NCBI GenBank assembly: GCA_019429365.1
Contig: JAHYJD010000002.1
Coordinates: forward strand, 21,347 to 85,346
Direction: 5' to 3'
DNA: 64,000 bases
Source of the DNA: Bacteroidales bacterium
Lineage (GTDB): Bacteria > Bacteroidota > Bacteroidia > Bacteroidales > UBA7960
Of this stretch, positions 12,368 to 56,889 are shown in pieces (positions within the stretch are counted from its first letter, which is position 1; each line of letters begins with the position of its first letter). The notes under the pieces are model-generated. The model did not search any database. It was not told the DNA's origin and saw nothing but the letters and a program-made list of their open reading frames with translations. A program made the translations under genes and the position numbers.

Positions 12368-12397
12368 TATTATAGGTTACAACTAAAATCTTGAGTA

Positions 12398-29400: not shown

Positions 29401-29525
29401 TGTGTGTTACGTTTTGGTTTGATTAATGTTAATGGAAAAATTATGTGTATGTATCGTCACTTTTGGTGATTTCGTTAAATGCTGTGTTTCAATAGTATAG
29501 CGTGGCAAAGATAGATGTTTTGGAA

Positions 29526-33010: not shown

Positions 33011-33026
33011 AATAAATCATAACTCA

Positions 33027-33271
33027 AAACGTGTCGCCCTTTCAGGGCTAACCTGGATTGTCGCCAGTTTACACAGGGTTGGCACCCTGTGCTTTCACGC
33101 ATTGCCCTTTCAGGGCAAATTCAGAGTGAATACTCCGGCTTTCGCTGGATGCAATACTCCCGAATCCAATCAAGGAGCGTAGCCCCGAAACTTAAAAGCA
33201 CAAGGTGAAGCGAAGCGAAACCCGGTGAGCGAAGCGCCACCAGGATCGCAAGCCCTGAAAGGGCGACGCGT
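33027..33271. repeat. Structured palindromic repeat element, copy A2 (tandem to A1)
   Basis: Same architecture and clear sequence similarity to A1 (AAACGTGTCGCCCTTTCAGGGCT ... AGCCCTGAAAGGGCGACGCGT termini). Confidence 0.85.
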
Positions 33272-33287
33272 AAAGAATCAAACCCTT

Positions 33288-34328
33288 TTAAATTCCCTTT
33301 TCAACATATTCAATAACTTCCTGCATCAATGGCTCCAAAAAAGGAGTGTACGCGCTTTGGGGATAGTCGGTTTTGAATTGCTCAAAAACGGTAATCAGAT
33401 CCTGATCAAAAAACCTAAAGCGGTATTGCTGGTCTATGTAGGCAGCAATAAAAAACTCAAGGTTCATATCTGAAGAATACTCTTTGGCCAGTTCAATGGT
33501 ATTGCTGTGGATTAAACCCTGGCTGCGGTTTTCAGCCCGGATTGCCACCACTTCTTTATAACCAAGGGCTGAATACAAATTAAACCAGAAAGTCATAAAC
33601 AAATAGTCGTAAGCATACAAAGACCTCAAGAAAAAGGGTTGATCTGAAGAAACCATCGAAATAGCTTCTTCCCAAATTTCCATAAGGTCATCAGGAGTAG
33701 AACTACCGTCACCATTAATCCTGAGATGATTCATTGAAGCCAGCACAGCTTGGGCGGTGCCGTAATAAACATTCCTGTCGGCAACAAGCAGAGCATAGAC
33801 ATCCTCAGAAATTTCTCCCATTGTCAAAAACTCCCCAAAACCATTCAACTCCTTTTGCAATTCAGCCTGCAACTCCCGCCTGATTTCCAAATATTCAGAT
33901 GGATCGTGGCTGCCAAAGGAAAAAATACACGATCTTGGATGGGTGTGCATCAAACCGGTATAAAATTCCTGCACTTTGCCCAAATTCCCTTCGATGGATA
34001 ATTTCTGATCTGGGCTAAGATTAAGAATTATGTCGTAGTGTTTTCCTTGCTCAACAATTAAAGAAGGCGAATCGAAATACCGGAAATTAATCAAAGCCGG
34101 TTTTTCAAGTTCAAGGCGGATCTCAAACCCACCCAATGAGTCAAGGGTGACTTCTTCATAAAAACCTTCGAATACAGTTCCATTTACAGGCACTGTATAA
34201 CTTAACACTTCAGGAGTATTACCAGCGAATTGGCCTGTTATGGTAACTTGACTGGTTTGGAACCTGTTGCATCCCAAGAAAATTAACAAAAAGCCAAGTA
34301 TTAAGGTGCTGTAAATCATCTGTTTCAT
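33288..34328 (-). CDS. Hypothetical lipoprotein
   Basis: 346 aa. Lipobox (FLGCN), an N-terminal beta-rich about 100 aa, then a helical region. No catalytic motif recognised. AT-rich gene. Confidence 0.5.
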   Translation of the reverse strand: MKQMIYSTLILGFLLIFLGCNRFQTSQVTITGQFAGNTPEVLSYTVPVNGTVFEGFYEEVTLDSLGGFEIRLELEKPALINFRYFDSPSLIVEQGKHYDIILNLSPDQKLSIEGNLGKVQEFYTGLMHTHPRSCIFSFGSHDPSEYLEIRRELQAELQKELNGFGEFLTMGEISEDVYALLVADRNVYYGTAQAVLASMNHLRINGDGSSTPDDLMEIWEEAISMVSSDQPFFLRSLYAYDYLFMTFWFNLYSALGYKEVVAIRAENRSQGLIHSNTIELAKEYSSDMNLEFFIAAYIDQQYRFRFFDQDLITVFEQFKTDYPQSAYTPFLEPLMQEVIEYVEKGI

Positions 34329-34489
34329 TTGTAAATTTTTTTTTGAACTTATATGAACTGTGCATAGTCAAAGAAAAGAATTTTTTAAAAATTCGTATGA
34401 TTTTTTCTGCCAACCGCTTTAATTTAAATTGATTCTAAATAATCTAATTTTTCCGAAAAAAACAGGCCGGGTTTCATGATTCGGCAGGC

Positions 34490-35119
34490 TTAGTTTGAAG
34501 GATTTTCGTGGTGAAAAAGGTTCAGGGCATCTTTCCTGGAATTGATTTCCAATTTGGAGTAAATGCTGTTTACATGCGATTTTACCGTGCTTAAACTAAC
34601 CATTAAAGATTCTGAAATTTCTTTGTTGGTTTTGCCTTCCATGATCATGGAGAATACTTTACGCTCCTGGACAGTTAAATCTTTCAAGCGGTTTTGGTTT
34701 CGTTGCCAGCTTTTTTTAAACAACCGGTTAGCAAAAAAACCAGCAATAAACAAAACGGCCCCAAATAGAAGTATCCTGAATGAAAGCCAGTTACTCTTTT
34801 GAATTGGGATCTTATTCCTGAACTCCTCCAAATAAATCGAGTCTTCGTTTTTCCACTTCAGAAGAAAATCTTTGTAATACTGCCTGTTTTGCTGGTAGTT
34901 GCTCTCAAACCTGCTTTTATAAAGGGCATAAAGGCTTACCATATGGTTTGAACAGGTGTCGGCAAATGCCCTAAGGTTCTCGAAAACACCACTTCTGATT
35001 AAATCGCTTATTACCGGGCTTGTCTCAAAGCTAGCACTATCAAGATAGGCCGCAATTTGATTAATTTGCTGTAGCTGTATTCCCTTGTTTTTCGCCGGAG
35101 GAGTCAAGAATCTCAACAC
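34490..35119 (-). CDS. Membrane-anchored LuxR/GerE-type HTH regulator (start uncertain, possibly frameshifted from the upstream ORF)
   Basis: One TM helix (WLSFRILLFGAVLFIAGFF), then a C-terminal LuxR HTH (LTVQERKVFSMIMEGKTNKEISESLMVSLSTVKSHVNSIYSKL). The only start is a GTG that overlaps ORF 35061-35321 by 59 nt. Confidence 0.6.
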   Translation of the reverse strand: MLRFLTPPAKNKGIQLQQINQIAAYLDSASFETSPVISDLIRSGVFENLRAFADTCSNHMVSLYALYKSRFESNYQQNRQYYKDFLLKWKNEDSIYLEEFRNKIPIQKSNWLSFRILLFGAVLFIAGFFANRLFKKSWQRNQNRLKDLTVQERKVFSMIMEGKTNKEISESLMVSLSTVKSHVNSIYSKLEINSRKDALNLFHHENPSN

Positions 35120-35321
35120 TCATCTTTCCTTCGCGAATGGTTGAATCGATAGAAAGGGCGAAAGTATCGTACTCAGTTGAAACATCAATGGAAATGTGCT
35201 GTTCCTTTGATTCATTTTCCAATTTCAGGCTCCTTGAAGAATTAAACGTAGCTCTTTCCTGTGCATTTGCCAATGGCAGCAGAAAAAAAACGCAAACAAC
35301 GAGAATGATTAACTTTTTCAT
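35061..35321 (-). CDS. Small secreted protein, or the N-terminal signal and sensor part of the LuxR-type regulator
   Basis: 86 aa. Clear signal peptide MKKLIILVVCVFFLLPLANAQ. The 3' end overlaps the LuxR ORF in another frame, around an A5 run. Confidence 0.4.
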   Translation of the reverse strand: MKKLIILVVCVFFLLPLANAQERATFNSSRSLKLENESKEQHISIDVSTEYDTFALSIDSTIREGKMSVEILDSSGEKQGNTATAN

Positions 35322-35592
35322 TTTTTTTGATTTAAATGGTTAAAGAATGAACGAAGCAAATCTATATTACCATATCTTATTTAACAACTAAAAAAAGGTT
35401 GAATTAGTGCTGAAAAAAGGTTTAAAATGTAAGGGGAAACCAAGGTTGTTTCATATTTCCGCAAAAAACAGTAGCGAAGCTTCGCCACTTAACAATCAAA
35501 TGTGACCCTGCCTAAATCGTCTAAGCAGCTTTCCTTTAAAAAGTATTTTTCAAATTTCAAATAACCTCGGACCTGATCCATTTCATCTTCAG

Positions 35593-35670
35593 AGTTCAAA
35601 CGTAGTTAATACGTAGTTAACACGTAGTTAATACGTAAATTTACGTTTGAACTATGTTTTAACTACGTGT
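35593..35670. repeat. 11-bp tandem array (ACGTAGTTAAY x3, plus a degenerate 4th) inside an 11-bp perfect inverted repeat, plus one inverted copy
   Basis: AGTTCAAACGT (35593-603) / ACGTTTGAACT (35643-653). Units at 35600, 35611 and 35622. Reverse copy TTAACTACGTG at 35659-669. Confidence 0.9.
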
Positions 35671-35803
35671 ATATCTCGTATTAAACTAAAACTTTAAAGG
35701 ACCTTGTCAGGGTTAGGTTTCTTTTGGGAATGCAGGCTTGTTTATATCGTTTATAAATAAGGAGTGAGGCCTGATTTATCCTCGGGGAAGCACAGGGATT
35801 TGC

Positions 35804-35811
35804 TATTTTTG
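35804..35811 (+). promoter_or_regulatory. Candidate Bacteroidetes -7 promoter box (TATTTTTG) for dmsABC
   Basis: Matches the TAnnTTTG consensus, 30 nt upstream of ATG 35841. No well-spaced -33 TTTG was seen. Confidence 0.3.
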
Positions 35812-35840
35812 CCAAAGCAAGTTTAATTATTACCAGACCC

Positions 35841-40016: not shown

Positions 40017-40610
40017 ATGAATTCCAGTTGGGACAGGAAGCAGATTTCAGGGGTTGTTTTGGCAGGTGGCAAAAGCAGCCGCTTCGGGCAGGATAAAGGT
40101 TTGTTTCCCTTCCGGGGAAAGGCTTTGGTGGAGCATGCCATCGACATCCTGAAGCCTCTTTGCAGCGAAATCCTGATCAGCACAAATAATCCCGATGCAT
40201 ACGGTTTCACGGGTCAAAAAACAATCGCAGACATCCACGCCGGCTGCGGCCCCATTGGCGGCATGCACAGCGGGCTTTTTAATGCCAGTGGCCAAATAGT
40301 TCTTTTCCTGGGTTGCGATATGCCTTTTGTGGATAGCAAAGTCTTTTCGTTTTTGCTGGAAAATATCGCCGTAAACCATGCTGCCGTGGCCATGCACAAT
40401 GGTTTCCGCGAAACGCTTTGCATGGCCTTGAAAAAAGAAAGCCTGCCCCTTGTGGAACAGGCCATTGCCGAAAAAAAATACAAGATTCTTGATATGCTCG
40501 AAATGCTTAGCGTAAGCTATCCTGAGTTAAGCACCCAGTCTTTCTTTCACCGCGATATGTTTCACAACATTAATTTTCGGGAGGATCTTCCCCCTGATCG
40601 GAAACAATAG
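40017..40610 (+). CDS. mobA: Molybdenum cofactor guanylyltransferase MobA
   Basis: GVVLAGGKSSRFGQDKGL nucleotide-binding motif and about 197 aa. The track start 40014 is TTG; ATG 40017 is preferred. Confidence 0.85.
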   Translation: MNSSWDRKQISGVVLAGGKSSRFGQDKGLFPFRGKALVEHAIDILKPLCSEILISTNNPDAYGFTGQKTIADIHAGCGPIGGMHSGLFNASGQIVLFLGCDMPFVDSKVFSFLLENIAVNHAAVAMHNGFRETLCMALKKESLPLVEQAIAEKKYKILDMLEMLSVSYPELSTQSFFHRDMFHNINFREDLPPDRKQ

Positions 40611-40983
40611 ACGGACCAGTATTGAGTTTATAATCTTTAACTAGAATACCGGCTGATAAATTAAGCCTGGAAGTCAGTTTTCTGATCATCTCAACAGTAA
40701 GTTTTCTTTTGCGGTTCAAAATCTCCGAAACCCTGCTTTTCCCACCAATTTCATTAACTAGGTCACTCTGTTTCAGATTTAACTCTTCCATTCTGATTTT
40801 AATAGCGGCAATGGGGTCAGGCGCTTCAATCGGGTAATGCTTCTTTTCGTAATCGTCGATAAGCAAAGCCAGCACATCTGCCTCATCGCTTTCAGGAGTA
40901 CCAACAGGAGCATCAAAAAGAATCTCCAGTCTTTTCAACGCCTTTTCATAGTCAGCTTTTTTCTTAATAATTTTTATGTCCAT
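40570..40983 (-). CDS. higA: HigA-type antitoxin (XRE-family HTH)
   Basis: 137 aa. C-terminal HTH (QSDLVNEIGGKSRVSEILNRKRKLTVEMIRKL). Located immediately downstream of the toxin gene, which is the HigBA order. Confidence 0.75.
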   Translation of the reverse strand: MDIKIIKKKADYEKALKRLEILFDAPVGTPESDEADVLALLIDDYEKKHYPIEAPDPIAAIKIRMEELNLKQSDLVNEIGGKSRVSEILNRKRKLTVEMIRKLTSRLNLSAGILVKDYKLNTGPSIVSDQGEDPPEN

Positions 40984-40995
40984 GGTTTTAATTGA

Positions 40996-41292
40996 TCAAA
41001 TTAGGTTTGCATCAATTTTATCGTATTCAGCATGGGTTCCGATAAAACGAACAAAGGCCCATTGCTTCTCAAAATTGAACTTCACAACCAGTCTGAAGGT
41101 ATTTCCCTTTATGTTAAAAACTACCCTCGAATTTTTCAATATACTGGCAGTGGCATAAGCACTTTTTATCTCATTGGGATTCTTCCATTCAGAGCTCATT
41201 GTGGTATCATACCAGGTTTTTAGGTATTGTTCAGTTTCAGGGTGTTTCTCCCAAAAACTCCGCAAGGTACTCTTCGAAAAGATCCGCTCCAT
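40996..41292 (-). CDS. higB: HigB-type toxin (RelE-superfamily mRNA interferase)
   Basis: 98 aa. Sequence (FWEKHPETEQYLKTWYD...VFNIKGNTFRLVVKFNF...VRFIGTHAEYDKI) matches the HigB-toxin family pattern as I recall it. Confidence 0.75.
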   Translation of the reverse strand: MERIFSKSTLRSFWEKHPETEQYLKTWYDTTMSSEWKNPNEIKSAYATASILKNSRVVFNIKGNTFRLVVKFNFEKQWAFVRFIGTHAEYDKIDANLI

Positions 41293-42236: not shown

Positions 42237-42302
42237 TCATGTTAAGAGAAACAAATTTACCGAAATATTAAACATTGGCTGGTAACTTCATTTTATTAAG
42301 CA

Positions 42303-42535
42303 TCGCCCTTACAGGGCTTGCGAATTAAGGATTGGGCTAAACACAGGGTTAGCACCCTGCGCTTACACGTTTTGCCCCTTCAGGGCAAAATTTTGAATCT
42401 TGTGATCCAAAGGTTTTTATAAAGTTTCTCCACAGCAAAGGGGCGAAGCCCCGAAACTTAAAAGCACAGGGTGGAGCGAAGCGAAACCCTGTGTGTGAAA
42501 ACCCAGAAAAAAATTAAGCCCTGAAGGGGCGAAAC
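42303..42535. repeat. Structured palindromic repeat element, copy B (single full element)
   Basis: TCGCCCTTACAGGGCTTGCG...ACACAGGGTTAGCACCCTGCGCTTACACGTTTTGCCCCTTCAGGGCAA ... GGGGCGAAGCCCCGAAACTTAAAAGCACAGGGTGGAGCGAAGCGAAACCCTGTG...AAGCCCTGAAGGGGCGAAAC. Same family as A1 and A2. Confidence 0.85.
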
Positions 42536-42618
42536 ATTGTTACCCATAAAAAAGCTAAAATAATCAGAAACCATTAAATTTGAATCACTATTCCCAATTC
42601 TAAGAAGAGCTATCAACC

Positions 42619-45214: not shown

Positions 45215-46231
45215 TTATGCGCTTACTTTCAGCGCATCCTTAATTTTATTTTCCACTTCTTCAGAAAGTTCCGGGTTGTCAAGCAGCAATTGTTTCACCG
45301 CATCGCGGCCTTGCCCCAGCTTGGTTTCTCCGTAGCTGAACCATGATCCGGATTTTTTAATGATATTATGATCGACGGCCAGGTCGATGATCTCACCCAC
45401 CTTAGAAATGCCCAGACCAAAAATAATATCAAATTCTGCCTGACGGAACGGGGGTGCCAGCTTGTTCTTCACCACTTTTACGCGGGTGCGGTTACCCACA
45501 GCGCTGTCGCCTTCCTTGATCTGAGAAATACGTCTGATATCAAGCCGCACTGAGGCATAAAACTTCAGGGCGTTTCCCCCTGTTGTTGTTTCAGGGTTGC
45601 CAAACATAACCCCGATCTTTTCGCGAAGCTGGTTAATGAAAATACAGCAGCAACCGGTCTTATTAATGGTTCCTGTCAGTTTTCTCAAAGCCTGCGACAT
45701 AAGCCTTGCCTGAAGACCCATTTTCGAGTCGCCCATCTCGCCTTCGATCTCGCTCTTTGGCGTCAATGCGGCCACTGAGTCAATTACTATGATATCGATG
45801 GCACCGGAGCGGATCAGGTTTTCGGCAATTTCGAGTGCCTGTTCGCCATTATCGGGCTGGCTTACCAGCAGGTTTTCAATGTCCACGCCCAGTTTCTTGG
45901 CGTAGTTGCTGTCGAAAGCGTTTTCTGCATCAATGAAAGCAGCTATGCCGCCGGCTTTTTGTGCTTCGGCAATGGCATGGATAGCCAGGGTGGTTTTACC
46001 TGATGATTCCGGACCATAAATTTCAACCACACGGCCGCGTGGCAGACCGCCAGTGCCCAGTGCAATGTCGAGGGTAAGTGAGCCGGTACTAATGACTTCA
46101 ACCGGCACAACGGCCGAGTCGCCAAGTTTCATAATGGTGCCCTTGCCGTACGATTTCTCTAACTTGTCCAGCGTGAGCTGAAGGGCCTTCAGCTTTTCGG
46201 CATTCTGGGGGTTTTCCTTTTCTTTACTCAT
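45215..46231 (-). CDS. recA: Recombinase RecA
   Basis: 338 aa. Walker [10 protein letters not shown] and canonical RecA sequence throughout. Confidence 0.97.
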
Positions 46232-47096: not shown

Positions 47097-48092
47097 ATGC
47101 GATATTCAATTAAAGCCTTTCTTAAAAGACTTTTTGTGTTTACCGTATTGTTTTGCCTGATACTGCCCGGCTATGCTGATGGCCAGCGCAGAATTACCCG
47201 CGAAGAATACATTGAAACCTACCGCGATATAGCCATTGAAGAAATGCGCACCAACGGCATTCCTGCCAGCATAAAGCTTGCCCAGGGCATTCTTGAATCT
47301 GGTTTTGGCAATAGCGAACTGGCCACCAGGGCCAACAATCATTTTGGCATTAAATGCAATGGATGGACTGGCCGTTCGGTATTGCAGGATGATGATGCCA
47401 AGAATGAATGTTTCCGCGCTTATAACGACCCCGTTGAATCCTGGCGTGATCACTCCCAGTTTCTGTTAACCCGACCTTGGTACGCCCCCCTTTTCAAGCT
47501 CGACCCCACCGATTATAAAGCCTGGGCACATGGATTGCGCCGCGCAGGCTATGCCACCAATCCGCGGTATGCCCAATTGCTTATCAGGGTTATTGAGGAA
47601 AACAACCTTTCCCAATACGACAAAATGGCCATGAATATGCTGGCCGAGCTGCCTGCATCTCCTAACCTTCGCAATGCCAGCAGCCGCCCCGCAAGGCCGG
47701 CACGCACACAAACGGTTGAGGATTTTGCGCCGGTATCCTTCGAGGCCGTCAGAACCGTACAGACCAACAACCGCGTAAAATATATTTTAGCCCGCCAGGG
47801 CGACACCCCCGAACGCATTGCCGAAGAAATGAGCATGCGTGCCTGGCAAATAGAGCGATACAATGAGCTGGAAAACGGGCGTACCATCAAGCCCGGGCAG
47901 ATTGTTTACTTGCAACCCAAGCGCAAACAGGCTGTAAAGGCTGTGCATGTTGCCCAGCCGGGCGAAACCATGTATGATATTTCGCAACAACATGGCATCA
48001 GACTCGACCAACTACTCAGCCGCAACAATATGCAAGAGTGGCAGCAGCCCCAACCCGGACAGAAGATTTTGTTAAAGGGCAGGGCAAGGTAA
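47097..48092 (+). CDS. Secreted glucosaminidase-domain peptidoglycan hydrolase with two LysM domains
   Basis: 331 aa. Signal peptide, glucosaminidase region (AQGILESGFGNSELATRANNHFGIK), two C-terminal LysM-like repeats. Confidence 0.8.
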   Translation: MRYSIKAFLKRLFVFTVLFCLILPGYADGQRRITREEYIETYRDIAIEEMRTNGIPASIKLAQGILESGFGNSELATRANNHFGIKCNGWTGRSVLQDDDAKNECFRAYNDPVESWRDHSQFLLTRPWYAPLFKLDPTDYKAWAHGLRRAGYATNPRYAQLLIRVIEENNLSQYDKMAMNMLAELPASPNLRNASSRPARPARTQTVEDFAPVSFEAVRTVQTNNRVKYILARQGDTPERIAEEMSMRAWQIERYNELENGRTIKPGQIVYLQPKRKQAVKAVHVAQPGETMYDISQQHGIRLDQLLSRNNMQEWQQPQPGQKILLKGRAR

Positions 48093-48147
48093 CTAACGGA
48101 ATCGCCCGTCTATTTTTTTGCACTTACCAGACTAATCTAAGGCTGCA

Positions 48148-48435
48148 ATGCTCGAAATCCTTTTCTTAATGGCCTTTGGAATTCTGATCGGGTTTTTCCT
48201 TCGCGGGAAGAAAAGAGCCGTGTTCTGGGTTGAAAAGGCCATTCTCTGGAGCATTTTCCTGCTGCTTTTTTTTCTGGGGCTTTCCATTGGTGGCGATGAG
48301 CTCATTATGGCAAGCCTGCCCTCGCTGGGGCTCAATGCATTTCTGATTACCCTGGGCGGGGTGTCGGGCAGCGTGCTTGCTGCCTGGGCCACCTGGAAGT
48401 TTCTGTTTAACAGGAAAAAAAGGAGCACCCAATGA
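48148..48435 (+). CDS. LysO/DUF340-family membrane protein, small N-terminal piece
   Basis: 95 aa, 3 TM segments. ATGA overlap with the next gene. Together the two ORFs total 296 aa, about the length of one LysO/YbjE-type protein as I recall it. Confidence 0.6.
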   Translation: MLEILFLMAFGILIGFFLRGKKRAVFWVEKAILWSIFLLLFFLGLSIGGDELIMASLPSLGLNAFLITLGGVSGSVLAAWATWKFLFNRKKRSTQ

Positions 48436-49037
48436 AAACAAGCCTGATCATACTGCTGTTTTTTGCCGCCGGGGTGCTGGCCGGAACGCTTGATTTTTTA
48501 CCAGCTGCCCTTAACGGGAAGGATATGAGCACCTTGGCCTTGTACCTGCTTATGTTTTTGGTGGGCATCAGCATTGGTGCCGATGACCGCGCCCTGGAAG
48601 CGCTCAAATCGCACGGACTGAAACTGTTCCTGGTGCCCCTTGCCACCATTATCGGCACCTTTGCCGGGGTGGCAGCCATTCACCTGGCCACCACCAATCT
48701 TCTTTTCGGCGAAAGCATGGCCGTGGGTGCCGGCTTCGGCTATTACAGCCTTTCGAGCATTATCATTGGCGAGTTGCACAGCGAAGCCCTGGGCGTTACC
48801 GCCCTGCTGGCTAACGTAATGCGCGAGATTATCACCCTGTTGCTTGCACCTTTTTTTGTGCTCTGGTTTGGAAAACTCTCACCCATTTCGGCAGGCGGCG
48901 CCACCAGTATGGACACCACCCTGCCCATAATCACCCGCGCATCAGGAAACGAATTTGCCATAGTGTCATTGTTTCATGGCATGGTCCTAACCATATTGGT
49001 GCCTTTGCTGGTAACGTTTATAATTTCAATGATTTAA
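48432..49037 (+). CDS. LysO/DUF340-family membrane protein, large piece
   Basis: 201 aa, polytopic. Family call from memory of DUF340 sequences (GFGYYSLSS...TSMDTTLP). Confidence 0.6.
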   Translation: MKTSLIILLFFAAGVLAGTLDFLPAALNGKDMSTLALYLLMFLVGISIGADDRALEALKSHGLKLFLVPLATIIGTFAGVAAIHLATTNLLFGESMAVGAGFGYYSLSSIIIGELHSEALGVTALLANVMREIITLLLAPFFVLWFGKLSPISAGGATSMDTTLPIITRASGNEFAIVSLFHGMVLTILVPLLVTFIISMI

Positions 49038-49047
49038 ACAAATAATG

Positions 49048-49146
49048 TTACGCCCTTACAGGGCTTGCAATATTGTGGCGTGTTAAAATCACAGGGTTTC
49101 GCTTCGCTTCACTCTGTGCTTTTACGTTACGGGGCTATGCCCCTGG
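49048..49146. repeat. Solo unit (long-loop type) of the structured repeat family, copy C
   Basis: CGCCCTTACAGGGCTTGCAA...CACAGGGTTTCGCTTCGCTTCACTCTGTGCTTTTACGTTACGGGGCTATGCCCC matches the reverse complement of the right-hand units of A1, A2 and B. Confidence 0.8.
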
Positions 49147-49311
49147 TTTTTTTGAATTGAACATCAAAATACATCGGTCTTTGCCGGCTGACATTGCCCC
49201 GAGGGGTGCAATTGCTTTACCACATTTTTTTAGAAATATCAAAAAAAATTTACTTTTTATTTTTTTTTATTTACTTTATTATTAGAAAATTAAATGATTT
49301 TTTACGATTTA

Positions 49312-49343
49312 TTTGCAGAATTTTGTAGTATTTAATATGTTTG
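49312..49343 (+). promoter_or_regulatory. Candidate Bacteroidetes promoter: TTTG (-33) - N20 - TATGTTTG (-7)
   Basis: TTTG at 49312-15 and TATGTTTG at 49336-43 fit the -33 TTTG / -7 TAnnTTTG consensus and spacing. ATG 49371 lies 28 nt downstream. Confidence 0.4.
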
Positions 49344-49385
49344 CAATATTCATTTTTATTTATTAATAATATGATGCCTTTGCTT

Positions 49386-49406
49386 ACACACACACACACA
49401 CACACA
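49386..49406. repeat. Dinucleotide microsatellite (AC)10A
   Basis: ACACACACACACACACACACA read directly. It starts 15 nt after ATG 49371. Confidence 0.95.
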
Positions 49407-49647
49407 GCGGGCATGGTGCAGCAAATCATTTATGCTTGCTGGTTTTTATTTTTTGGCAAAGTGTTAAGTTTGCTTTCACTCCATTTATTATTTTCCTTAT
49501 TAGTTCTCGTTGTCTATTTTTTTGGTTTGGTAAGAACAAGTTCGTTTAATTATGGCCATTAAACCCAATTTGTGGGATTAATGGCGTTTTTTCTATTCTT
49601 ACTATCAATTGTTAATTCAATTTTTTATTAACGCAAAACTAATAAAT

Positions 49648-50634
49648 ATGAAAACAAAAACTATGCTACTGCTGTTTTGCTTCGCTTTTTTGGGGGGCTG
49701 TTCAAAAAGAGATTTTGAGAGATCAATTGAACCATCAACTATTGTTGATAATAAATTCTCTGCTGAATTGAAGAATGTCGGCGTTAGGCAAGGTGTATTG
49801 TCTTTTAATGATATTAAGGAGTTTCGGGCTTTTTACAATTTCATCCTTGATTATCAAATGAATGTTGATTTTTTGTTAAAGTTTATAAGGGAAAACTTTG
49901 ATTTTGTTTCTGCAAGAGAGGTCTTTGAGGGTCAAATTAACAACATTGAACATCCAACGGAGTTCCTAAAAGCAGCTGAATCAAATCCTAATGTTTTTGA
50001 GAAAATTAACATAGGTGGTGAATTTTACTATGATTTGGCCTTTTCCAATGTTTCTTCATACTTCTTTAACAGAGAAGGTAAAGTCATAATTGGAGACACT
50101 TTGATTGTGGCTAGAAAAGAAGGCACATATCTTTTTGAGATTGGACGTGATCCAGAAATAGGTAACCTTGAATCGGATTCCAATGATTTTCGTTTTATAC
50201 CCAAAGAATTTGAGACATTTGGCCCCAAAAACCATTTCAGCTACAAGACAGCCTACTTTTCAAATTCTAGACGGATTGTTGCCAGATTATATTTGCACGA
50301 AATTTACTATCCAGGTATAGGGATCATGTATGAATATGATGCAAGGACTACCGGGCAAAGAAGGTATTTAGGAGCCTGGATTCAAAACAGGATCGATTTA
50401 ATAGGTTTCAAGCATGAGTATGGCTCTATTACCTATCAATCTTCAATAAGTCAATTCGTTAACCCTGCCGATTTTTTCCTTTTTGGCCGTGCAGATATTT
50501 CTCAAACCTTAGCTTATGGGTCATATATTGATCCCATTGTTCACGCTCAAAGTACGCTAATGCTAACCCATTATGGAACTTGGGACTCGGAATATGGTTA
50601 CCGAGAAATAACGGAAAACGAGCTTTTCAGATGA
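49648..50634 (+). CDS. Hypothetical lipoprotein (island gene 1)
   Basis: ATG 49648 gives MKTKTMLLLFCFAFLGGCSK (lipobox). 328 aa with no recognisable domain. AT-rich. Confidence 0.6.
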   Translation: MKTKTMLLLFCFAFLGGCSKRDFERSIEPSTIVDNKFSAELKNVGVRQGVLSFNDIKEFRAFYNFILDYQMNVDFLLKFIRENFDFVSAREVFEGQINNIEHPTEFLKAAESNPNVFEKINIGGEFYYDLAFSNVSSYFFNREGKVIIGDTLIVARKEGTYLFEIGRDPEIGNLESDSNDFRFIPKEFETFGPKNHFSYKTAYFSNSRRIVARLYLHEIYYPGIGIMYEYDARTTGQRRYLGAWIQNRIDLIGFKHEYGSITYQSSISQFVNPADFFLFGRADISQTLAYGSYIDPIVHAQSTLMLTHYGTWDSEYGYREITENELFR

Positions 50635-50654
50635 TAAATTAAAAATTTGTTTTT

Positions 50655-51251
50655 ATGGGCAGAGGTATAAATTTCAGGTTTTATTTAAAATTGATTTTTT
50701 TTTCAATTCTTTTCCAATTTTGGATAATTCCTGATGCAATTCCACAAGGAGGTTCAACTCCTTTGTTGGAGAGGCAGAATTTTTTGGGCTTTCAGCTAAA
50801 CCCTTTTTTTAACGATGTTTTTTTTGATGAACTCACCGCAGGAAATTTTCAACGTTCCTTATGGGTTTTCTCTGTTCATTACGGACGGGAGTCGGTTTTT
50901 TTTCCAAACCTGACCATTGGAGGTGAGTTTCATCAACATAGAACCTTTCGGGCAGATCCGGGCTATTCGTTTTTTACCCTGGGTCCATTCGCACGCTATT
51001 CTCATAGGGTTTTTACCTGGGCTGGTGTGTTTGCCGAAGCATCCCCCATGGTTAGCTATTCAGTTTCAAAAATTCCTAACCTCGGAATTGAAAACAAGGA
51101 TTTTGAGTTCATCTATTATTTTGCGCCTGGTATTTCATTAGGTCAGCACCAAAAGCGTTTTAGTGTTGACTTGTTTTGGAAGTTTTCAGGGAAAGTGCTT
51201 ATTGATGGAAATAAAAATGTTTTTAGCTTTAAACTTAATTACCATTTTTAA
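50655..51251 (+). CDS. Hypothetical small outer-membrane beta-barrel-like protein (island gene 2)
   Basis: 198 aa. N-terminal hydrophobic leader, alternating aromatic/hydrophobic pattern, ends in ...FKLNYHF (C-terminal Phe typical of OM barrels). Confidence 0.5.
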   Translation: MGRGINFRFYLKLIFFSILFQFWIIPDAIPQGGSTPLLERQNFLGFQLNPFFNDVFFDELTAGNFQRSLWVFSVHYGRESVFFPNLTIGGEFHQHRTFRADPGYSFFTLGPFARYSHRVFTWAGVFAEASPMVSYSVSKIPNLGIENKDFEFIYYFAPGISLGQHQKRFSVDLFWKFSGKVLIDGNKNVFSFKLNYHF

Positions 51252-53594
51252 GTGAGAATTAAATTTATCAACCATCATTGGCTAATCCTGTTTCTTATAC
51301 TTAACCCCACCTTGACTTTGGCTCAGGGTGGGGTTACAGTCCAGGGCTATGTCCGTGATTCTTTGAGCCGTGAAACTTTACCCGGCGTGCATGTTCTGTC
51401 AATAGAAACCCAAACTGGAACCATAACCAATAATTATGGGTTTTATTCTATCACTTTACCTCCTGAAAGTACTCAGCTAGTTTTTTCTTACGTGGGTTAT
51501 GGAACAAAGCATCTTTATTTATATATGTCAAAAAACCTTCGCCTCGATGTAGACTTGCAACCCAAGGTTGATTTGGAGATTGTGACAGTTAGTGCTGAAA
51601 GGCCACAGTTTGAAACACCGGCTTTAGGGGCAATTCGTCTGCCTATTATTCAGGCAAAGGCTGTGCCCGCAGTTTTTGGTGAAAAAGATGTAATGAAAGC
51701 ATTGCAACTATTGCCAGGCGTGCAAGGTGGCAATGAAGGAACCAGCGGATTGTTTGTAAGGGGCGGTGGTCATGATCAAAATCTGATCATCCTTGACGAT
51801 GCCATTGTTTATAATGTCAATCACCTTTTTGGTTTTTTTTCCCTTTTTAATGGAAATGCAATAAAAGATGTTGGGCTTTATAAGGGCGGCTTCCCTGCCA
51901 GGTATGGTGGCAGGCTCTCTTCGATAGTGGATATAACCATGCGCGAAGGCAATATGAATAAATATGAAGGTGAGGCGGGTATAGGGCTGATTTCGTCAAG
52001 ATTTTCATTTGAAGGTCCAATTGTTAAAGAGAAAGCCTCTTTTTTGCTCTCTGGCAGGCGTACCTATCTTGACCGACTTATTACTCCTTTTATGCCTGAT
52101 GAAGAAAAAATTGGCTATTTCTTTTACGACCTGAATGCCAAAATGAATTATGTATTAAATGAAAATAACCGTTTCTTTTTAAGTGGTTTTTTCGGAAAGG
52201 ATAAGCTCTCCACTTCATATATTGAACCTTATGAAAAAACCGTTGGAGGGTTAAACTGGCACAATGCTTTGCTGAGCGCCAGGTTAAGCAGCATTCTTCC
52301 CAAGGGATTATTTGTAAATAACACCTTGGTTTTTAGTCAATACCGCACTGGTTACCTGTTGCGGCAAATAGACATTCCTTCTTCTCAAGAGTATTATTTT
52401 AATTACCAAACCGGCATAAGAGACTATTCTCTTAAATCTGATTTCTTTTTTAACCCCTGGCCTTTTCATACCTTCAGGTTTGGAGGTGTTGCCATTGCAC
52501 ATGAATTTCAACCCAGGTTGTTTGAAATAAGAAATGAGCTTGTTGGACAGTACCGAGGTGAGGAAGAAAAACAATGGTCAGTTGAGTCGGCCTTATATGC
52601 TGAAAACGAATTTACCCGAAATCAATGGATGTATAATATTGGTTTCAGACTTTCTTTTTACAATACCCTTAAGCAAAGCCGGTTTAAGCCCGAACCACGA
52701 ATTACCATCGGATATCTTTATTCTCCGCTTGGTTCAGTAAAGGCTTCATACTCAGAAATGAATCAGCATATTCATTTGTTAAGCAATACGGGTGGTTCGC
52801 TTCCAACTGACATTTGGTTACCTGCTGGCCCAAGCCTGCTTTCGCAAAGCAGCAAACAATTTTCGTTAGGATGGAACAGGAGGCTTGAAAGGTTTGATGC
52901 TGAATTAACGTTGGAAGGATATTTTAAACAGTCTGATAATATTCTTACCTATAGAGATGGTGCCCACTTCTTTTTTATAGATGATCAAAATCCATCGGCC
53001 GATATCAACTGGGAAGACAACGTGTCCCAGGGCATTTCAGAGGCTTTTGGAATAGAGTTCTTAATTCACAAAAAGAAGGGTAAATTAAATGGATGGTTTG
53101 CGTATACCTGGTCGGAAGCCTTTTTTAGCTTCAACGAAATCAATAATGGGGAAAACTACCCCGCCAATTTTGACCGCAGGCATAATCTGTCACTAACCCT
53201 CTCTTACAGCTTTTCTTCTGCATTTCAGGTTTCTACTTCCTGGGTTTTTATGAGTGGCCACCCCATTACCTTGCCATTACATACTTCTCAAACTTTTCGG
53301 CCCATTGGCTTCCTCGGAGATCAAGGAATGGAGCCTGGTTTTATTGTTGACTATTATACGCAAAGAAACAACTACCTGACTGAAAACTATCACCGATTGG
53401 ATTTAAGTTTCAGGTTTATTAAAAATAAACGCTTTGGAGACAGGGTATGGGAAGTGGGTGTCTATAATGCTTATAATAGAATGAACCCTTTTTCATATAA
53501 TCTGATTACTGACCGCAATACTGGTCAAAGAAAACTCAGAAAAACTACCTTATTCCCTTTGATACCTTCCGTGACATACTTATTTAAGTTTTAA
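51252..53594 (+). CDS. TonB-dependent receptor with N-terminal CarboxypepD_reg-like domain (island gene 3)
   Basis: 780 aa, GTG start abutting the previous stop. Signal peptide, CarbopepD_reg-like segment (VQGYVRDSLSRETLPGVHV), plug (DVMKALQLLPGVQGGNEGTSGLFVRGG), C-terminal ...VTYLFKF. Confidence 0.85.
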   Translation: MRIKFINHHWLILFLILNPTLTLAQGGVTVQGYVRDSLSRETLPGVHVLSIETQTGTITNNYGFYSITLPPESTQLVFSYVGYGTKHLYLYMSKNLRLDVDLQPKVDLEIVTVSAERPQFETPALGAIRLPIIQAKAVPAVFGEKDVMKALQLLPGVQGGNEGTSGLFVRGGGHDQNLIILDDAIVYNVNHLFGFFSLFNGNAIKDVGLYKGGFPARYGGRLSSIVDITMREGNMNKYEGEAGIGLISSRFSFEGPIVKEKASFLLSGRRTYLDRLITPFMPDEEKIGYFFYDLNAKMNYVLNENNRFFLSGFFGKDKLSTSYIEPYEKTVGGLNWHNALLSARLSSILPKGLFVNNTLVFSQYRTGYLLRQIDIPSSQEYYFNYQTGIRDYSLKSDFFFNPWPFHTFRFGGVAIAHEFQPRLFEIRNELVGQYRGEEEKQWSVESALYAENEFTRNQWMYNIGFRLSFYNTLKQSRFKPEPRITIGYLYSPLGSVKASYSEMNQHIHLLSNTGGSLPTDIWLPAGPSLLSQSSKQFSLGWNRRLERFDAELTLEGYFKQSDNILTYRDGAHFFFIDDQNPSADINWEDNVSQGISEAFGIEFLIHKKKGKLNGWFAYTWSEAFFSFNEINNGENYPANFDRRHNLSLTLSYSFSSAFQVSTSWVFMSGHPITLPLHTSQTFRPIGFLGDQGMEPGFIVDYYTQRNNYLTENYHRLDLSFRFIKNKRFGDRVWEVGVYNAYNRMNPFSYNLITDRNTGQRKLRKTTLFPLIPSVTYLFKF

Positions 53595-53600
53595 ATTGAA

Positions 53601-54503
53601 ATGGCGAAAAGAAAGAATTTTGTTTCTCTCATTCTTTTGGTTTGTACCCTGGGTTTTTTAAGCTCAGCTTGCTCTGGATTGATTGAAGACATTGATCTTT
53701 CTTTTGCTGAGCCTCCGATAGTGGTTCATTGTTATTTGTTTCCGGGAATGCAGGTAATCGAAATATCAGTTGAATATGCTCATAATATTGGGGGAGGTGC
53801 CATCCCCTCCAATAGGATACCGGTTGAAGATGCCCTTGTAAAATTGTGGTCAGAGATTCATGAACCCATTCTGATCCCTTATGATGAAACCAAAATGTTA
53901 TTTAGCTCCTCTGCAGAGGAGCTGACAATTATTGAAGGGCTAGAGTATTACCTTTTAATTGAGCATCACCAGCATCACTCCATTTCGGCAAAGGTCCGGA
54001 TTCCTGAAAGCCATAATGAGTTTTTTGTTGAAGTTAGCGAATTGGAAACAAAAACAGACTCTCGTATCTTTAGTTTTGTGGCCTGGGTTCAGGATAAACC
54101 CCAAGAAAAAAACTTTTACCAATTTTTTGGTTTTCTTGATGGCGTCAGAATTTGTGAAATTGAGCAAGGGATAGAAGAAGTGGAATTTAGTTACTCAATT
54201 TTTGATTTTAATCCTTTAACACCTGATGAAAACCGGGATGGCCTGACGATTCTCTTTACATCCCGTGAATTGGAATTCTTCAACTCTCATATATGTCATT
54301 ATAGGATTGATAGCCTTCGTTTTAGCCTGGCTTTTTTTGAAGAGAGCACTTTCTTTTACCTTAAATCCATTGAGGACTTTATGGACGCAACCGATAATCC
54401 GTTTCTTTTCCCGCAGACTCCATATTCTAACATTACGAATGGGGTTGGTATATTTGGCGCTTACAGCATGAAAGAAAAAGTTATTTATGCTGATGAATTT
54501 TAA
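53601..54503 (+). CDS. DUF4249-like lipoprotein (island gene 4)
   Basis: 300 aa. Lipobox (LSSACSG). Lies directly after a non-SusC TonB receptor, the usual partner arrangement for DUF4249 proteins in Bacteroidota. Family call from context and memory. Confidence 0.55.
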   Translation: MAKRKNFVSLILLVCTLGFLSSACSGLIEDIDLSFAEPPIVVHCYLFPGMQVIEISVEYAHNIGGGAIPSNRIPVEDALVKLWSEIHEPILIPYDETKMLFSSSAEELTIIEGLEYYLLIEHHQHHSISAKVRIPESHNEFFVEVSELETKTDSRIFSFVAWVQDKPQEKNFYQFFGFLDGVRICEIEQGIEEVEFSYSIFDFNPLTPDENRDGLTILFTSRELEFFNSHICHYRIDSLRFSLAFFEESTFFYLKSIEDFMDATDNPFLFPQTPYSNITNGVGIFGAYSMKEKVIYADEF

Positions 54504-54674
54504 GAGATTAGTTTCTTGCCTCGGAATTCCCCTTTTTTATAGCCCTAATCTTAGCTTAGTGAAAAATAGGTAATGATATTTTCGTCGGTTATTTTTAACC
54601 TCGCGCCAAAAAAGTTGGCCTGCTACATCAGTAGTGGTAAGCTTTTGTCCGCATTATAATATTAAGTAGCGCAT

Positions 54675-54764
54675 CCAACAGGACTTGCGATTCTGGGGGC
54701 ATTTCATTCACAGGGTTTCGCTTCGCTGTACCCTGTGCTTTTACGTTACGGGACTTCGTACCTT
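54675..54764. repeat. Solo unit (long-loop type) of the structured repeat family, copy D
   Basis: CAACAGGACTTGCGATT...CACAGGGTTTCGCTTCGCTGTACCCTGTGCTTTTACGTTACGGGACTTCGTACC. Same orientation as copy C, and near-identical over the core CACAGGGTTTCGCTTCGCT...CTGTGCTTTTACGTTACGGG. Confidence 0.8.
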
Positions 54765-54774
54765 AGCCCAAAAT

Positions 54775-56889
54775 TTACCTTACCGCCGCCACATATGCGC
54801 CCTTTGTTCGCACCGGCCAAACCTCGATGCCGGCTTCCTGGCAGGCTTCTTCCCAGCGGTTCGTATTCCAGAAGGTATTGGAGGCGTCAATGATTACCTT
54901 TTGAGGCTGCAAGGCTTCAAGGGCGATTTGCGGATTTACACGCGAATTCTGACTTATAATCAGGTAATGGATTGGCATGCCAGGGTCAGGGATTTCCCGC
55001 AAAGGGGACTGATCAAGTAAGAAAAGGTTTAATTGCCCGAAGCGCAAAAAAGGGCCGCGGCGGTAAAGGTTTCCATTGACAAAGGGTTCTTCGGCTTCTG
55101 CCAGGCTGGCCGGCAGCACCGACCTGATGCCATGCTGCACCCTGTTTTCCTTCAAATGAAAATCGACCTTGCGCGGATCGTCCTGCAGGGTTTCACACAT
55201 CAAAAAAACGCTTTCCTTTCCTGAAACAAAATCGATGGCGCAGGCATTGTTCACATGATACACTACCATTTTATCGTTTCGCAGGTTCTGAATACTCCGG
55301 GCCGAAATGGAAACGCTGACCACCAGAAAAATGCCCAATGCCAGGCGAAGGGCCATGGTGCGCTGCTGCATCAAAAACAGGCTGAGAAAAATCAGCACCA
55401 TGAAGATTGCCAATGTTTCCGGGAGGTTTATAAAAACATTGCTGGAAGTGGAGTAAGGCAGCCCTTCGATAAATTTTACCGACTGGTGCAGGGCAAAAAC
55501 CACTCCAAAAAGGACTTTACCTGCAAGCATGCCCACCACGGGAATGGGCGTGAGCAAAAGGGTTGCCAATGCGGAGTAAATAATCAGACTCGCCAGCGGT
55601 ATCACAATCAGGTTGGTAAGCAGGAAATAATTGGGAAACTGGTGGAAATAAAACAGCGAAAGCGGCCCGGTGGCCAGTTGCGCAGCCAGCGAAACGGTGA
55701 GGATGGCCCAGGCCTTATCTACCAAATAATTCTTGAAAACTAACTGCCTGTAAAAGAAAGGTTGCAGGGCCACAATGCTGATCACTGCCAGGTAGGAAAG
55801 CTGGAAACCGATGCGTGTAATGATGTAAGGGTCAATGATCATGAGCAAAAACGCCGAAGCTGCCAGGGTATTGTAAATGTTGGTGGTACGCCTGAAACTT
55901 TGCCCCAGCGCCACAAAGCTGAACATGGTGCTGGCCCTGAGCACCGATGGCGAAAAACCGGTAATGGCCGCGTAAAACCAAATGAGCAGGATGACCAGAA
56001 CGGTTTGAATAATGCGCCCGCGGGGAACCTTATTCAAAAATGACAGAATAAATTTCAGCACCAGGAAAATGATGCCCACATGCAGGCCCGACACGCAAAG
56101 TATGTGCATGGCTCCTGCCCCTGCAAATTCGCGCCGCAGGTCCTCATCAAGGTATTCGCGGAAGCCCAGCAGCAGGGCCGACACCACGGCAAACTCCCGG
56201 CCGCTTAAATGGTGCTCTTCGAAGGTTTCCAGGGCTTTGTGCCGCATGGCCAGCGACCACCGTATCAGAAAGAAGCCCCGGTTCTCATCAGTTGACTGCC
56301 AATGCCCTGAAGCCCTGTATGCCTGGTGAAAAATATTGCTGTAAGAAAGGAAGCGACGGTAGTTGAACTCGCCCGGGTTTTTCGGGTCGCCCACTTCCTG
56401 AAACTGGTTTTCTATGAGCAGGTAATCGCCATAACACACCGAAGCTGCCAGGCTGTCCTTTTGCAAGTAAAGCATCAGGTGTCCGCTGACTTTTTTGGCT
56501 TCCCCATTAACCAACACCTCTTTCACGCGGGTGATGACCTGGTAGGAGTTGGCTTTTTCGGATACCGGCTCCCTTACCTTAAGAAGAAGGAAGCCCTCCT
56601 CTTCCAGAAAATGGCTGAAATGGTCGGCCCGTGCAAGCTGGTGGTTGTTTTGGGCAATATGATAGCCCGCCACCAGCAAAAATACCGCTGCCCAGGTCCC
56701 GAAAATCCAGCGCCGGGCATAATGCCCCAGAAAAAATCTGCGGCCCAGCAGCCAGAGCAACCCAAGCAAAAGGTAAACTGTCAAAAAGAAAAGTAAGGAA
56801 AAATGAGTCCTGGCCGACAGATATGCGATGATTCCGACGGTAAATGGCACAACCAACCTTGCCAGGGGGATATGGGCAAAATGATTCAT
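54775..56889 (-). CDS. comEC: ComEC/Rec2-family DNA internalisation channel protein
   Basis: 704 aa. Many TM segments, a Competence-domain-like core (GAGAMHILCVSGLHVGI), and a soluble C-terminal domain. Confidence 0.8.
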   Translation of the reverse strand: MNHFAHIPLARLVVPFTVGIIAYLSARTHFSLLFFLTVYLLLGLLWLLGRRFFLGHYARRWIFGTWAAVFLLVAGYHIAQNNHQLARADHFSHFLEEEGFLLLKVREPVSEKANSYQVITRVKEVLVNGEAKKVSGHLMLYLQKDSLAASVCYGDYLLIENQFQEVGDPKNPGEFNYRRFLSYSNIFHQAYRASGHWQSTDENRGFFLIRWSLAMRHKALETFEEHHLSGREFAVVSALLLGFREYLDEDLRREFAGAGAMHILCVSGLHVGIIFLVLKFILSFLNKVPRGRIIQTVLVILLIWFYAAITGFSPSVLRASTMFSFVALGQSFRRTTNIYNTLAASAFLLMIIDPYIITRIGFQLSYLAVISIVALQPFFYRQLVFKNYLVDKAWAILTVSLAAQLATGPLSLFYFHQFPNYFLLTNLIVIPLASLIIYSALATLLLTPIPVVGMLAGKVLFGVVFALHQSVKFIEGLPYSTSSNVFINLPETLAIFMVLIFLSLFLMQQRTMALRLALGIFLVVSVSISARSIQNLRNDKMVVYHVNNACAIDFVSGKESVFLMCETLQDDPRKVDFHLKENRVQHGIRSVLPASLAEAEEPFVNGNLYRRGPFLRFGQLNLFLLDQSPLREIPDPGMPIHYLIISQNSRVNPQIALEALQPQKVIIDASNTFWNTNRWEEACQEAGIEVWPVRTKGAYVAAVR

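Follow-up and report, generated by a model that had tools for sequence, protein, structure and literature searches.

The AT-rich island between lysO and comEC

The DNA analyzed here, referred to as the window, is a stretch of 64,000 nucleotides (nt) from a metagenome-assembled genome of a Bacteroidales bacterium and holds approximately 52 genes. Between lysO and comEC, two conserved and convergent genes, it contains an island of four co-directional genes bracketed by two units, C and D, of a structured intergenic repeat (Table 1). The original prediction, made from the letters of the window, described this island as AT-rich and sharp-edged. The G+C content of successive 1-kb intervals from 49001 to 55000 (0.321, 0.373, 0.409, 0.385, 0.397, and 0.416) bears this out, as the island lies at 0.32–0.42 and the flanks at ~0.50–0.52 (0.524 at 48001–49000 and 0.496 at 55001–56000). 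The four genes have a G+C content of 0.35–0.40, and their G+C content at third codon positions (GC3) gives the four lowest values among 52 genes of the window (0.32–0.38 vs. 0.558 ± 0.072; z from −2.5 to −3.3). The tetranucleotide distance to the remaining window also reaches its maximum at the island (0.404 vs. a median of 0.139). Thus, the codon and tetranucleotide comparison that had been proposed along with the prediction showed the island to be strongly deviant.

The AT-rich leader that precedes gene 1 contains a Bacteroidetes-type promoter-like motif, TTTG-N20-TATGTTTG, at 49312–49343 and an (AC)10 microsatellite at 49386–49405. The motif is the sole exact match of the pattern TTTG-N18-22-TAnnTTTG in the window, a count that is not above chance, and its position is apt. 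The signal peptide of the gene 1 product, a protein for which no family match was found, ends in LGGC directly before SK. Gene 2, judging from its sequence, probably encodes a small outer-membrane beta-barrel. The receptor encoded by gene 3 matched the NCBIfam SusC/RagA model weakly and partially, far under the model cutoff.

A repeat unit is ~105 nt long and consists of three hairpins. H1 follows the pattern GCCCT-nnn-AGGGC, H2 the pattern CACAGGGT-loop-ACCCTGTG with either a long loop (TTCGCTTCGCTTC) or a short one (TGGC), and H3 the pattern GGGGC-TTC-GCCCC, often with a T-run after it. Folding as RNA and as DNA gave the same three separate hairpins on either strand, and a strand preference of folding was therefore rejected. 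A search with a profile built from the repeat found eight units at four intergenic sites of the window.

Units C and D are both long-loop units on the plus strand; in C, the H2 stem CACAGGGT/ACTCTGTG encloses the loop TTCGCTTCGCTTC. The shared cores quoted in the original prediction match exactly (49090–49108 with 54709–54727 and 49114–49133 with 54733–54752), where ~0.01 or fewer such matches are expected by chance. The identity between C and D is 92% in a 48-nt core and 72% across the whole ~105-nt unit; the outer hairpins of D are degenerate. Thus, the direct repeats were confirmed, but the length of ~90 bp first given for them was not, since only ~50 nt inside the ~105-nt units are well conserved. 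H3 of unit C together with its T-run has a terminator-like score and is placed for lysO, and from its sequence the H3 and T-run of a unit would probably act as a terminator of the upstream gene.

As the profile search found units in 4 of ~51 intergenic regions of the window, the chance of units at both flanks of one block is P ~0.005, with the same orientation not yet demanded. The bracketing of the island is therefore not made unremarkable by the frequency of the repeat, the possibility that had been named as fatal to the prediction.

No integrase or transposase domain was found in any of the ~52 genes, and no tRNA or tmRNA gene in the 64-kb window, as the prediction had stated, which rules out a genomic island of the tRNA/integrase type. 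PADLOC gave no match for the island or the neighbouring cassettes described below, and a defence island was ruled out on this ground. The search for phages gave no match to the island, no viral contig contained the H2 pattern or the receptor gene, and the plasmid matches consisted only of distant similarity of TonB receptors (65–71%); a phage or plasmid carrier was thus rejected as well.

Table 1. Positions of the cassette, its flanks and the repeat elements in the window
Feature	Position	Strand	Basis or remark
SNF–M3 intergenic site, 125 bp	29401-29525	.	empty, no unit in the window; cassette site in species A
Two tandem 261-bp compound elements (short-loop +, long-loop -)	32767-33272	.	between M28 peptidase gene and AT-rich 346-aa gene
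Acido-Lenti-1 matches, sub-threshold	32811-32856; 32912-32946	+; -	short-loop H2-linker-H3
One compound element (short-loop +, long-loop -)	42297-42538	.	between vanY and RF-1-domain gene
lysO (lysine exporter), left flank, conserved	48432-49037	+	Pfam Lys_export, E 3.5e-64; synteny in relatives
Unit C	49044-49148	+	H1 49052-49064, H2 49090-49118, H3 49131-49143; T-run 49147-49153
Transferred segment	49089-54727	+	blastn, junction alignments, list of differences
Hairpin TGCCCCGAGGGGTG	49195-49208	+	alignment with compound elements of L093 and L001; terminator-like scan
AT-rich cassette leader	49209-49647	+	promoter-like motif, (AC)10, substitution cluster
Gene 1, predicted lipoprotein	49609-50634	+	probable start ATG 49648 = 328 aa, as called in relatives
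Gene 2, 198 aa, signal peptide, C-terminal F	50655-51251	+	sequence
Gene 3, TonB-dependent receptor	51252-53594	+	Pfam CarboxypepD_reg-like and Plug domains; NCBI name
Gene 4, DUF4249 protein	53601-54503	+	Pfam, E 3.1e-21
Unit D	54664-54766	+	degenerate H1 54670-54690, H2 54709-54737, degenerate H3 54750-54762
comEC, right flank, conserved, convergent with lysO	54775-56889	-	Pfam Competence and DUF4131; synteny

The same cassette at a second site and the position of its joints

The exact 198-amino-acid (aa) protein of gene 2 is present in 114 blocks of a public collection. In all ten of the loci displayed among these blocks, the four genes stand after the gene of an SNF transporter and before either more cassettes or an M3 peptidase gene. 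The species with the island at this site is called species A below; all the sequences compared were metagenome assemblies. The blastn comparison of window positions 49089–54742 with positions 8443–14087 of the species-A locus L091 gave 99.35–99.36% identity over 5,654 bp, and the loci L092–L100 and L089 are equivalent. A total of 36 differences were listed between the window island and the species-A copy, 28 of them substitutions, and only 9 fall within the ~5 kb of coding DNA. Meanwhile, the flanking core genes of the window and species A are 68–84% identical. As the island is 99.4% identical and the core only 68–84%, the cassette crossed a species boundary recently; judged from its sequence, it is foreign in composition and has recently moved between species. 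One metagenome-assembled genome of species A was seen at both sites, since L095, with the island between the SNF and M3 genes, and L003, with an empty 78-bp lysO–comEC spacer, belong to it.

The alignment of the junctions placed both ends of the transferred segment inside repeat units. On the left side, the sequences of the window and species A diverge until TCACAGGG is reached and agree from its first base onward, including the diagnostic ACTCTGTG arm. On the right side, the agreement extends over the degenerate H1 carried by the cassette and over the 5' arm and loop of H2, after which GTACCCTGTGCTTTTAC stands against TCACCTTGTGATTTTGG. The crossover intervals obtained from these alignments are 49089–49112 on the left and 54716–54727 on the right. 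By this comparison, unit C is chimeric, its H1 part being resident and its sequence from H2 onward identical to the cassette copy of species A, and in unit D it is H1 that travels with the cassette and the 3' arm of H2 and H3 that are resident. Shared DNA with these limits, H2 of C and the loop of H2 in D, bears the signature of a recombination within the repeat, and if both joints arose from one reciprocal exchange, the crossover lies in the H2 loop TTTCGCTTCGCT. The original proposal that the cassette can be gained or lost by recombination between units is thus supported by the joints in H2 and by the occurrence of the same island elsewhere in species A.

Further cassettes adjoin the island in species A. 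In its arrays, a long-loop unit in gene orientation follows every cassette (L091, positions 8410, 14010, and 15280), and the same was seen in L093, L001, and L118. A module consisting of a 147-aa gene, a terminator, and a unit is 94–96% identical in L001, L091, and L118, the core being ~78% identical. No integrase was found among the called genes of L091–L100 or L118.

The leaders of these cassettes were compared as well. Of the 28 substitutions between the window and species A, eleven are crowded into an 89-bp part of the leader immediately before gene 1 (49462–49550), possibly through a short gene conversion in which a paralogous leader was the donor. Gene 1 (49371–49753) has its leader and first 34 codons (signal peptide; 73.5% aa identity) in common with the first gene of another cassette (L091, 15591–15970). 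The mature proteins behind this common part are unrelated, and receptor identity between the two cassettes is 43%. On these sequences, each cassette resembles a variant of a single outer-membrane set, placed after a 5' module that the cassettes share. Dinucleotide tracts lie 3' of the promoter-like motif in the cassette leaders: the same cassette has (AC)10 in the window and (AC)6–7 in species-A strains, a paralogous cassette has (AC)8, and L001 has (AG)15 (L091, 8740–8751 and 15606–15621; L001, 12544–12573). As the length of the tract differs between strains, phase-variable expression from the cassette leaders is suggested.

The lysO–comEC site of relatives was examined with a scan for LysO, which covered one genome per species and returned 80 loci; the nearest relatives have core DNA 84–92% identical to that of the window. 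In ten relatives, lysO and comEC are convergent neighbours 21–256 bp apart, and the 78-bp spacer of L003 contains no unit. In L115 (LysO 96% identical), a gene-free spacer of 443 bp is filled by a sister type of the repeat. Of the reference genomes scanned, the one whose LysO is most similar (L001; 98%) carries at this site a different, unit-bounded cargo of 4.2 kb with 31–41% G+C. Its first cassette encodes a DUF6705 protein and a 147-aa protein, its second a 455-aa protein with a C39-like peptidase domain and a 147-aa protein, and each of them closes with a terminator and a long-loop unit. The homology between the window and L001 stops exactly at the stop codons of lysO and comEC, and the lysO stop codon also ends the homology with relatives on the left side. 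From these alignments, the lysO–comEC site is a hot spot with varying cargo. The empty site that the original prediction looked for among relatives exists in the ten genomes and in L115, but a lone unit between lysO and comEC was not found. A solo long-loop unit stands directly after lysO in L103, L109, and L117, and its H1 part is orthologous to H1 of unit C.

Two further features of this region were noted. LysO is encoded by two open reading frames (95 and 201 aa) with a 4-nt overlap at 48148–49037, both of which match Lys_export, and this split arrangement is kept in all relatives examined. A block of 7–9 kb lies between a glucosaminidase gene and lysO in L001 (2281–9366), L101, L103, and L109; it contains genes for an aminotransferase, M1 and S41 peptidases, a DUF5916 protein, and a beta-lactamase-fold protein. 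Neither the window nor L113 has this block.

The lysO–comEC and SNF–M3 sites are also connected by an inversion. In L101, L103, L109, and L117, lysO together with a solo unit or its remnant is joined to the M3 peptidase region, which in the window lies ~20 kb from lysO on the other strand. The reciprocal junction, with the order comEC, unit, 147-aa cassette, and SNF, is present on the same 692-kb contig as L101. The inverted segment from lysO to SNF measures ~20 kb in the window and ~34 kb in the 692-kb contig, and its ends are the lysO–comEC and SNF–M3 spacers, which are also the two places where the island is found in the window and in species A. Of the two breakpoints, one coincides with the outer boundary of the solo unit; the other coincides with the stop codon of SNF, and no unit was seen there.

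The repeat family

Long-loop and short-loop units also join tail to tail into compound elements of ~260 bp. The compound element between vanY and the RF-1-domain gene keeps its position in L082 (~85% identical), and no AT-rich DNA adjoins it. Since units are thus found at sites without AT-rich DNA, they do not mark foreign DNA exclusively but form a general intergenic repeat, of which a subset serves as cassette joints. The suggestion that the repeat family marks or mediates the insertion of foreign DNA is supported for the island, the joints of which lie inside units. The hairpin TGCCCCGAGGGGTG between unit C and the leader is, as judged by alignment, a remnant of an inverted short-loop unit, namely the truncated second half of a compound element.

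A sister repeat, here called type II, occupies the lysO–comEC spacer of other relatives (L001, 10607–10870; L113, 10607–10900; L115, 8772–9214; L116, 12116–12320). The central hairpin of type II differs in the stem, CCCATGGC/GCCATGGG, but has the same loop core, TCGCTTCGCTT, and is on the opposite strand. From one repeat type to the other, three compensatory pairs preserve the H2 stem, and the loop core does not vary. In the test of this pairing, in which the four type-II copies count as one lineage, 99% of the cells were paired; this value was reached by 0 of 500 shuffles, and slid controls gave 27–48%.

The exact 29-nt H2 pattern occurs in only 10 metagenome contigs. The tetranucleotide before H1 is GTAG in unit D, CGTC in the copy at 33272, and others in other copies. 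Rfam gave nothing at the gathering score in the window or the four loci searched, and unit C produced only noise against its models. With sub-threshold matches confined to the short-loop unit, a known RNA family was rejected as the identity of the units.

The tandem repeat array at 32767–33272 adjoins a second AT-rich block (33288–35840), which holds a 346-aa gene without a family and a LuxR-type regulator gene. At 90% identity, the 346-aa protein has no counterpart; a syntenic homologue in L118, 49% identical in aa sequence, lies between flanks that are ~90% identical in nt sequence. The block is absent from species A, where the M28 peptidase and molybdopterin oxidoreductase genes lie 540 bp apart without units. 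No transfer of this block was seen; it was rejected as a second mobile cassette and regarded as a variable, fast-evolving locus beside the repeat array. Overlapping AT-rich palindromes of the ACGTAGTTAA type were observed at 35606–35684 in the long spacer that precedes the molybdopterin oxidoreductase gene and may, by their sequence, be binding sites of a regulator. In addition, a HigB-toxin/HTH-antitoxin gene pair with a low GC3 of 0.38–0.43 (40570–41292) adjoins vanY at a distance of ~1 kb from the compound element at 42297–42538, and this pair is conserved in L113.

The proposed exchange, its catalyst, and known systems

We conclude that the island is, with good confidence, a horizontally exchanged cassette of four genes that carries its own AT-rich leader and promoter-like motif and was spliced in at H2 of the repeat. 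In the simplest mechanism that we infer, the unit of an incoming cassette would undergo a single reciprocal exchange with a resident solo unit, and the cassette would enter the lysO–comEC spacer by a crossover inside H2 of that unit. The resident unit would thereby be split in two, with C receiving the resident H1 and the H3 of the cassette, and D the H1 of the cassette and the resident 3' arm of H2 and H3. The crossover would be situated in the 12-nt H2 loop, and the incoming form might be a circle or single-stranded DNA with one hybrid unit. The reverse exchange between C and D would free the cassette with one unit.

Several observations weigh against this mechanism. The crossover interval is the longest identical stretch (21 nt), where RecA would also cross over, and only one or two independent insertion events define it. 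Other differences between strains end at the outer edge of a unit, after the T-run of H3, or right after H2, and not in the loop. The exact state before the insertion, with a solo unit between lysO and comEC, was not observed: gene-free lysO–comEC sites carry either no unit or the sister type, and the solo unit is seen only in the inverted relatives. Furthermore, the evidence comes from metagenome assemblies throughout, and none of the nearest relatives, with their 84–92% identity in core DNA, is conspecific with the window.

As to the catalyst, the first candidate, to which we would give slightly less than an even chance, is a trans-acting Y1 HUH enzyme (IS200-like, annotated as "RayT", of subclass 1.2) that reads H2 on single-stranded DNA. 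RecA acting on the conserved ~50-nt core is the second candidate and about equally likely, its longest perfect blocks being 21 and 20 nt within 49 nt, which is short for RecA; some other recombinase would account for the rest. The Y1 HUH candidate is based on L087 (metagenome contig Ga0335397_10423312, 1–1108), which was retrieved solely through the H2 pattern. It carries a gene for a 148-aa IS200-like Y1 HUH protein (170–616, minus strand) that matches Y1_Tnp (PF01797, E 2e-21) and is similar to the solved structures of IS200-type and ISDra2 transposases. This gene is the only Y1_Tnp gene in the 1.69 Mb of retrieved DNA, and around it lie four copies of a doublet of 148 bp, each of which starts with the same long-loop H2 hairpin as the window units. 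The motifs DHIH, WQ, and YILSQPEHH of the protein fit subclass 1.2 of Quentin et al. with its signature Y---Q--HH. This subclass is confined to Cyanobacteria and Bacteroidetes and was described as generally lacking the properties of insertion sequences (IS) and terminal structures (PMC6006769); the doublets of L087 may give its members their missing cognate structures. Many of the 4,737 relatives of the L087 protein are named RayT by JGI and are found on ~1-kb contigs, as genes between repeats are. A RayT-like Y1 HUH enzyme is thus a specific, testable candidate catalyst.

This candidate has to be weighed against the lack of any recombinase or Y1 gene in the 64-kb window or in any cassette locus. 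In addition, L087 comes from a different organism with 38% G+C, and it has only H2 and 7 nt in common with the window units. We therefore propose only tentatively, as something rather less than probable, that the units and a subclass-1.2 Y1 HUH enzyme might form a cassette-mobilising system, in which the H2 loop would be nicked on single-stranded DNA and strands exchanged between two copies of H2. If so, any DNA between units of the same orientation, in this case a 5.6-kb operon of four genes with its own promoter, could be cut out along with one unit and enter any resident unit, in the same species or across species.

The same joints could have been formed with no dedicated enzyme at all, the units being passive portable homology and the homologous recombination of the host acting in the ~50-nt core after DNA uptake. 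This explanation is a serious one, although we would not call it probable. The window has a recA gene (45215–46231), a recombinase was not found in the vicinity, the longest identical block is also the crossover interval, and the breakpoints of other variants are situated at several positions in or beside units. However, perfect identity covers just 20–21 nt, which is at or below the usual minimum for efficient RecA exchange. Further points against host recombination of this kind are that the H2 loop is kept across two stem backgrounds, that the same hairpin flanks the Y1 HUH gene of L087, and that the endpoints of the inversion are one unit edge and one stretch of non-repeat DNA.

An integron-like cassette system would explain why the cassettes are co-oriented and low in G+C and why each of them closes with a structured repeat, and low G+C content together with repetitive intergenic sequences is likewise found in the rAID-1 clusters of Bacteroidales (10.1101/471110). 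Nevertheless, such a system is improbable, as the ends of the units show no GTTRRRY or RYYYAAC cores and a unit forms three separate hairpins instead of one long imperfect hairpin. No integrase was found beside any array, even where the array is bounded by core genes on both sides (from SNF to M3 in L093), and the cassettes contain multiple genes with leaders of their own.

Still less credit is due to an assembly chimera, i.e., a species-A island joined by the assembler into a locus of lysO, solo unit, and comEC through the repeat core. The window is indeed part of a metagenome-assembled genome, an independent assembly showing these junctions was not found, and many contigs break at these repeats (L002, L113, and L116). 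However, two joins through a core of ~21 nt would be needed, both in the correct order and orientation, and the window allele is unlike all species-A alleles, with 28 substitutions and a microsatellite 3–4 units longer. Moreover, the independent genome L001 has another unit-bounded cargo between lysO and comEC, and the species-A arrays recur in many independent assemblies. Finally, vertical inheritance of an ancestral island that was lost in most lineages and shifted by inversions, with repeats arriving later at its edges, is hardly credible: an inversion joining exactly both sites does exist in L101, L103, L109, and L117, and two successive inversions could carry the cassette from SNF–M3 to lysO–comEC, but inversions cannot explain the position of the island by descent when it is 99.4% identical, non-coding DNA included, and the core 68–84%, which refutes this as the sole explanation, and the inner halves of the units, which do not differ between the two genomes, thus move together with the island.

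REP-type repeats occur widely, as do the domesticated Y1 HUH enzymes associated with them. What they do biologically has been a matter of debate for decades, and the repeats count as small non-coding passengers. Here, a REP-like repeat serves as the entry junction through which multi-gene accessory cassettes reach ordinary intergenic spacers. The sites holding units vary in cargo and serve as endpoints for the inversion of a ~20-kb segment. If the repeats or an enzyme reading them mediate this exchange, it would constitute a route of gene flow in anaerobic-digester Bacteroidales that requires no adjoining integrase, transposase, or tRNA site, and current tools for finding islands and integrons would miss such cassettes. 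The alternative outer-membrane receptor sets behind a common leader with a dinucleotide tract of variable length suggest surface functions that are exchangeable and possibly phase-variable.

The minimal mobile elements and intergenic mosaic repeats of Neisseria offer one comparison: alternative cassettes occupy one repeat-rich spacer between conserved genes and are exchanged after DNA uptake, using homology in the conserved flanking genes. Here, in contrast, one and the same cassette has unrelated flanks at its two sites, which leaves the repeats themselves as the necessary joint.

The short-loop units resemble the Acido-Lenti-1 RNA (RF01687; PMC2864571) in their H2-linker-H3 part, which has an 8-bp stem with a tetraloop, a 12-nt linker starting with GCU, and a 5-bp stem with a UUC loop. 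However, the two matches in the window scored only 27.0 and 23.5 bits, compared with a gathering score of 37, and the long-loop units gave no match. A 2026 preprint describes Acido-Lenti-1-type motifs downstream of strain-variable protease genes in Tannerella, another genus of Bacteroidales.

The rAID-1 clusters are likewise found in Bacteroidales, consist of co-directional genes with a G+C content of ≤41% and repetitive intergenic sequence, and have been suggested to acquire genes actively (10.1101/471110). Their defining 5' XerD-like recombinase (10.1101/471110) is absent from the window and the cassette loci, and the cargo here is an outer-membrane transporter set instead of interbacterial immunity genes. 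With IS200/IS605 elements, the island shares similar same-strand hairpins at both ends, H2 having the same orientation, and no terminal inverted repeats, together with a Y1 HUH enzyme as candidate mobiliser and possible single-stranded circular intermediates. Unlike these elements, it contains no tnpA, and its 5.6 kb is far longer than typical; its ends lie within H2, with a complete H2 on both sides (a direct repeat of at least 20 nt) and not a 4–5-nt target beside the hairpin.

Integrons and the CALIN arrays, in which attC sites cluster with no integrase beside them, likewise consist of co-oriented accessory cassettes, each with a terminal structured recombination site, which are shared between genomes in variable order (PMC4889954). 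The crossover takes place inside the site, and the identity boundaries observed here lie in H2. The units differ in their three hairpins and in having neither attC cores nor a neighbouring integrase: GTTRRRY was found neither within C and D nor near them, the one RYYYAAC present is part of the degenerate H1 of D, and an identity with attC was rejected on this ground. The cassettes here also comprise 1–5 genes with an AT-rich leader, and their arrays occupy several ordinary intergenic sites.

The last comparison is with the REP, BIME, and REPIN repeats and their RAYT enzymes. In contrast to REP sequences of 20–40 nt, the units here are ~105 nt long with three hairpins and have no consistent GTAG/CGTC tag, and the linked enzyme of L087 has the subclass-1.2 signature Y---Q--HH; REP and REPIN repeats are not known to bound multi-gene cargo or to move it between species. 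The likeness lies in the intergenic hairpin repeats, which form inverted doublets and tandem composite arrays, often at the 3' ends of genes (PMC3116915, PMC2817692, PMC6006769); a Y1 HUH gene flanked by repeats was seen on L087, a contig of another organism. If the units and such an enzyme do mobilise cassettes, this would be a REP/RAYT-type system working like an integron.

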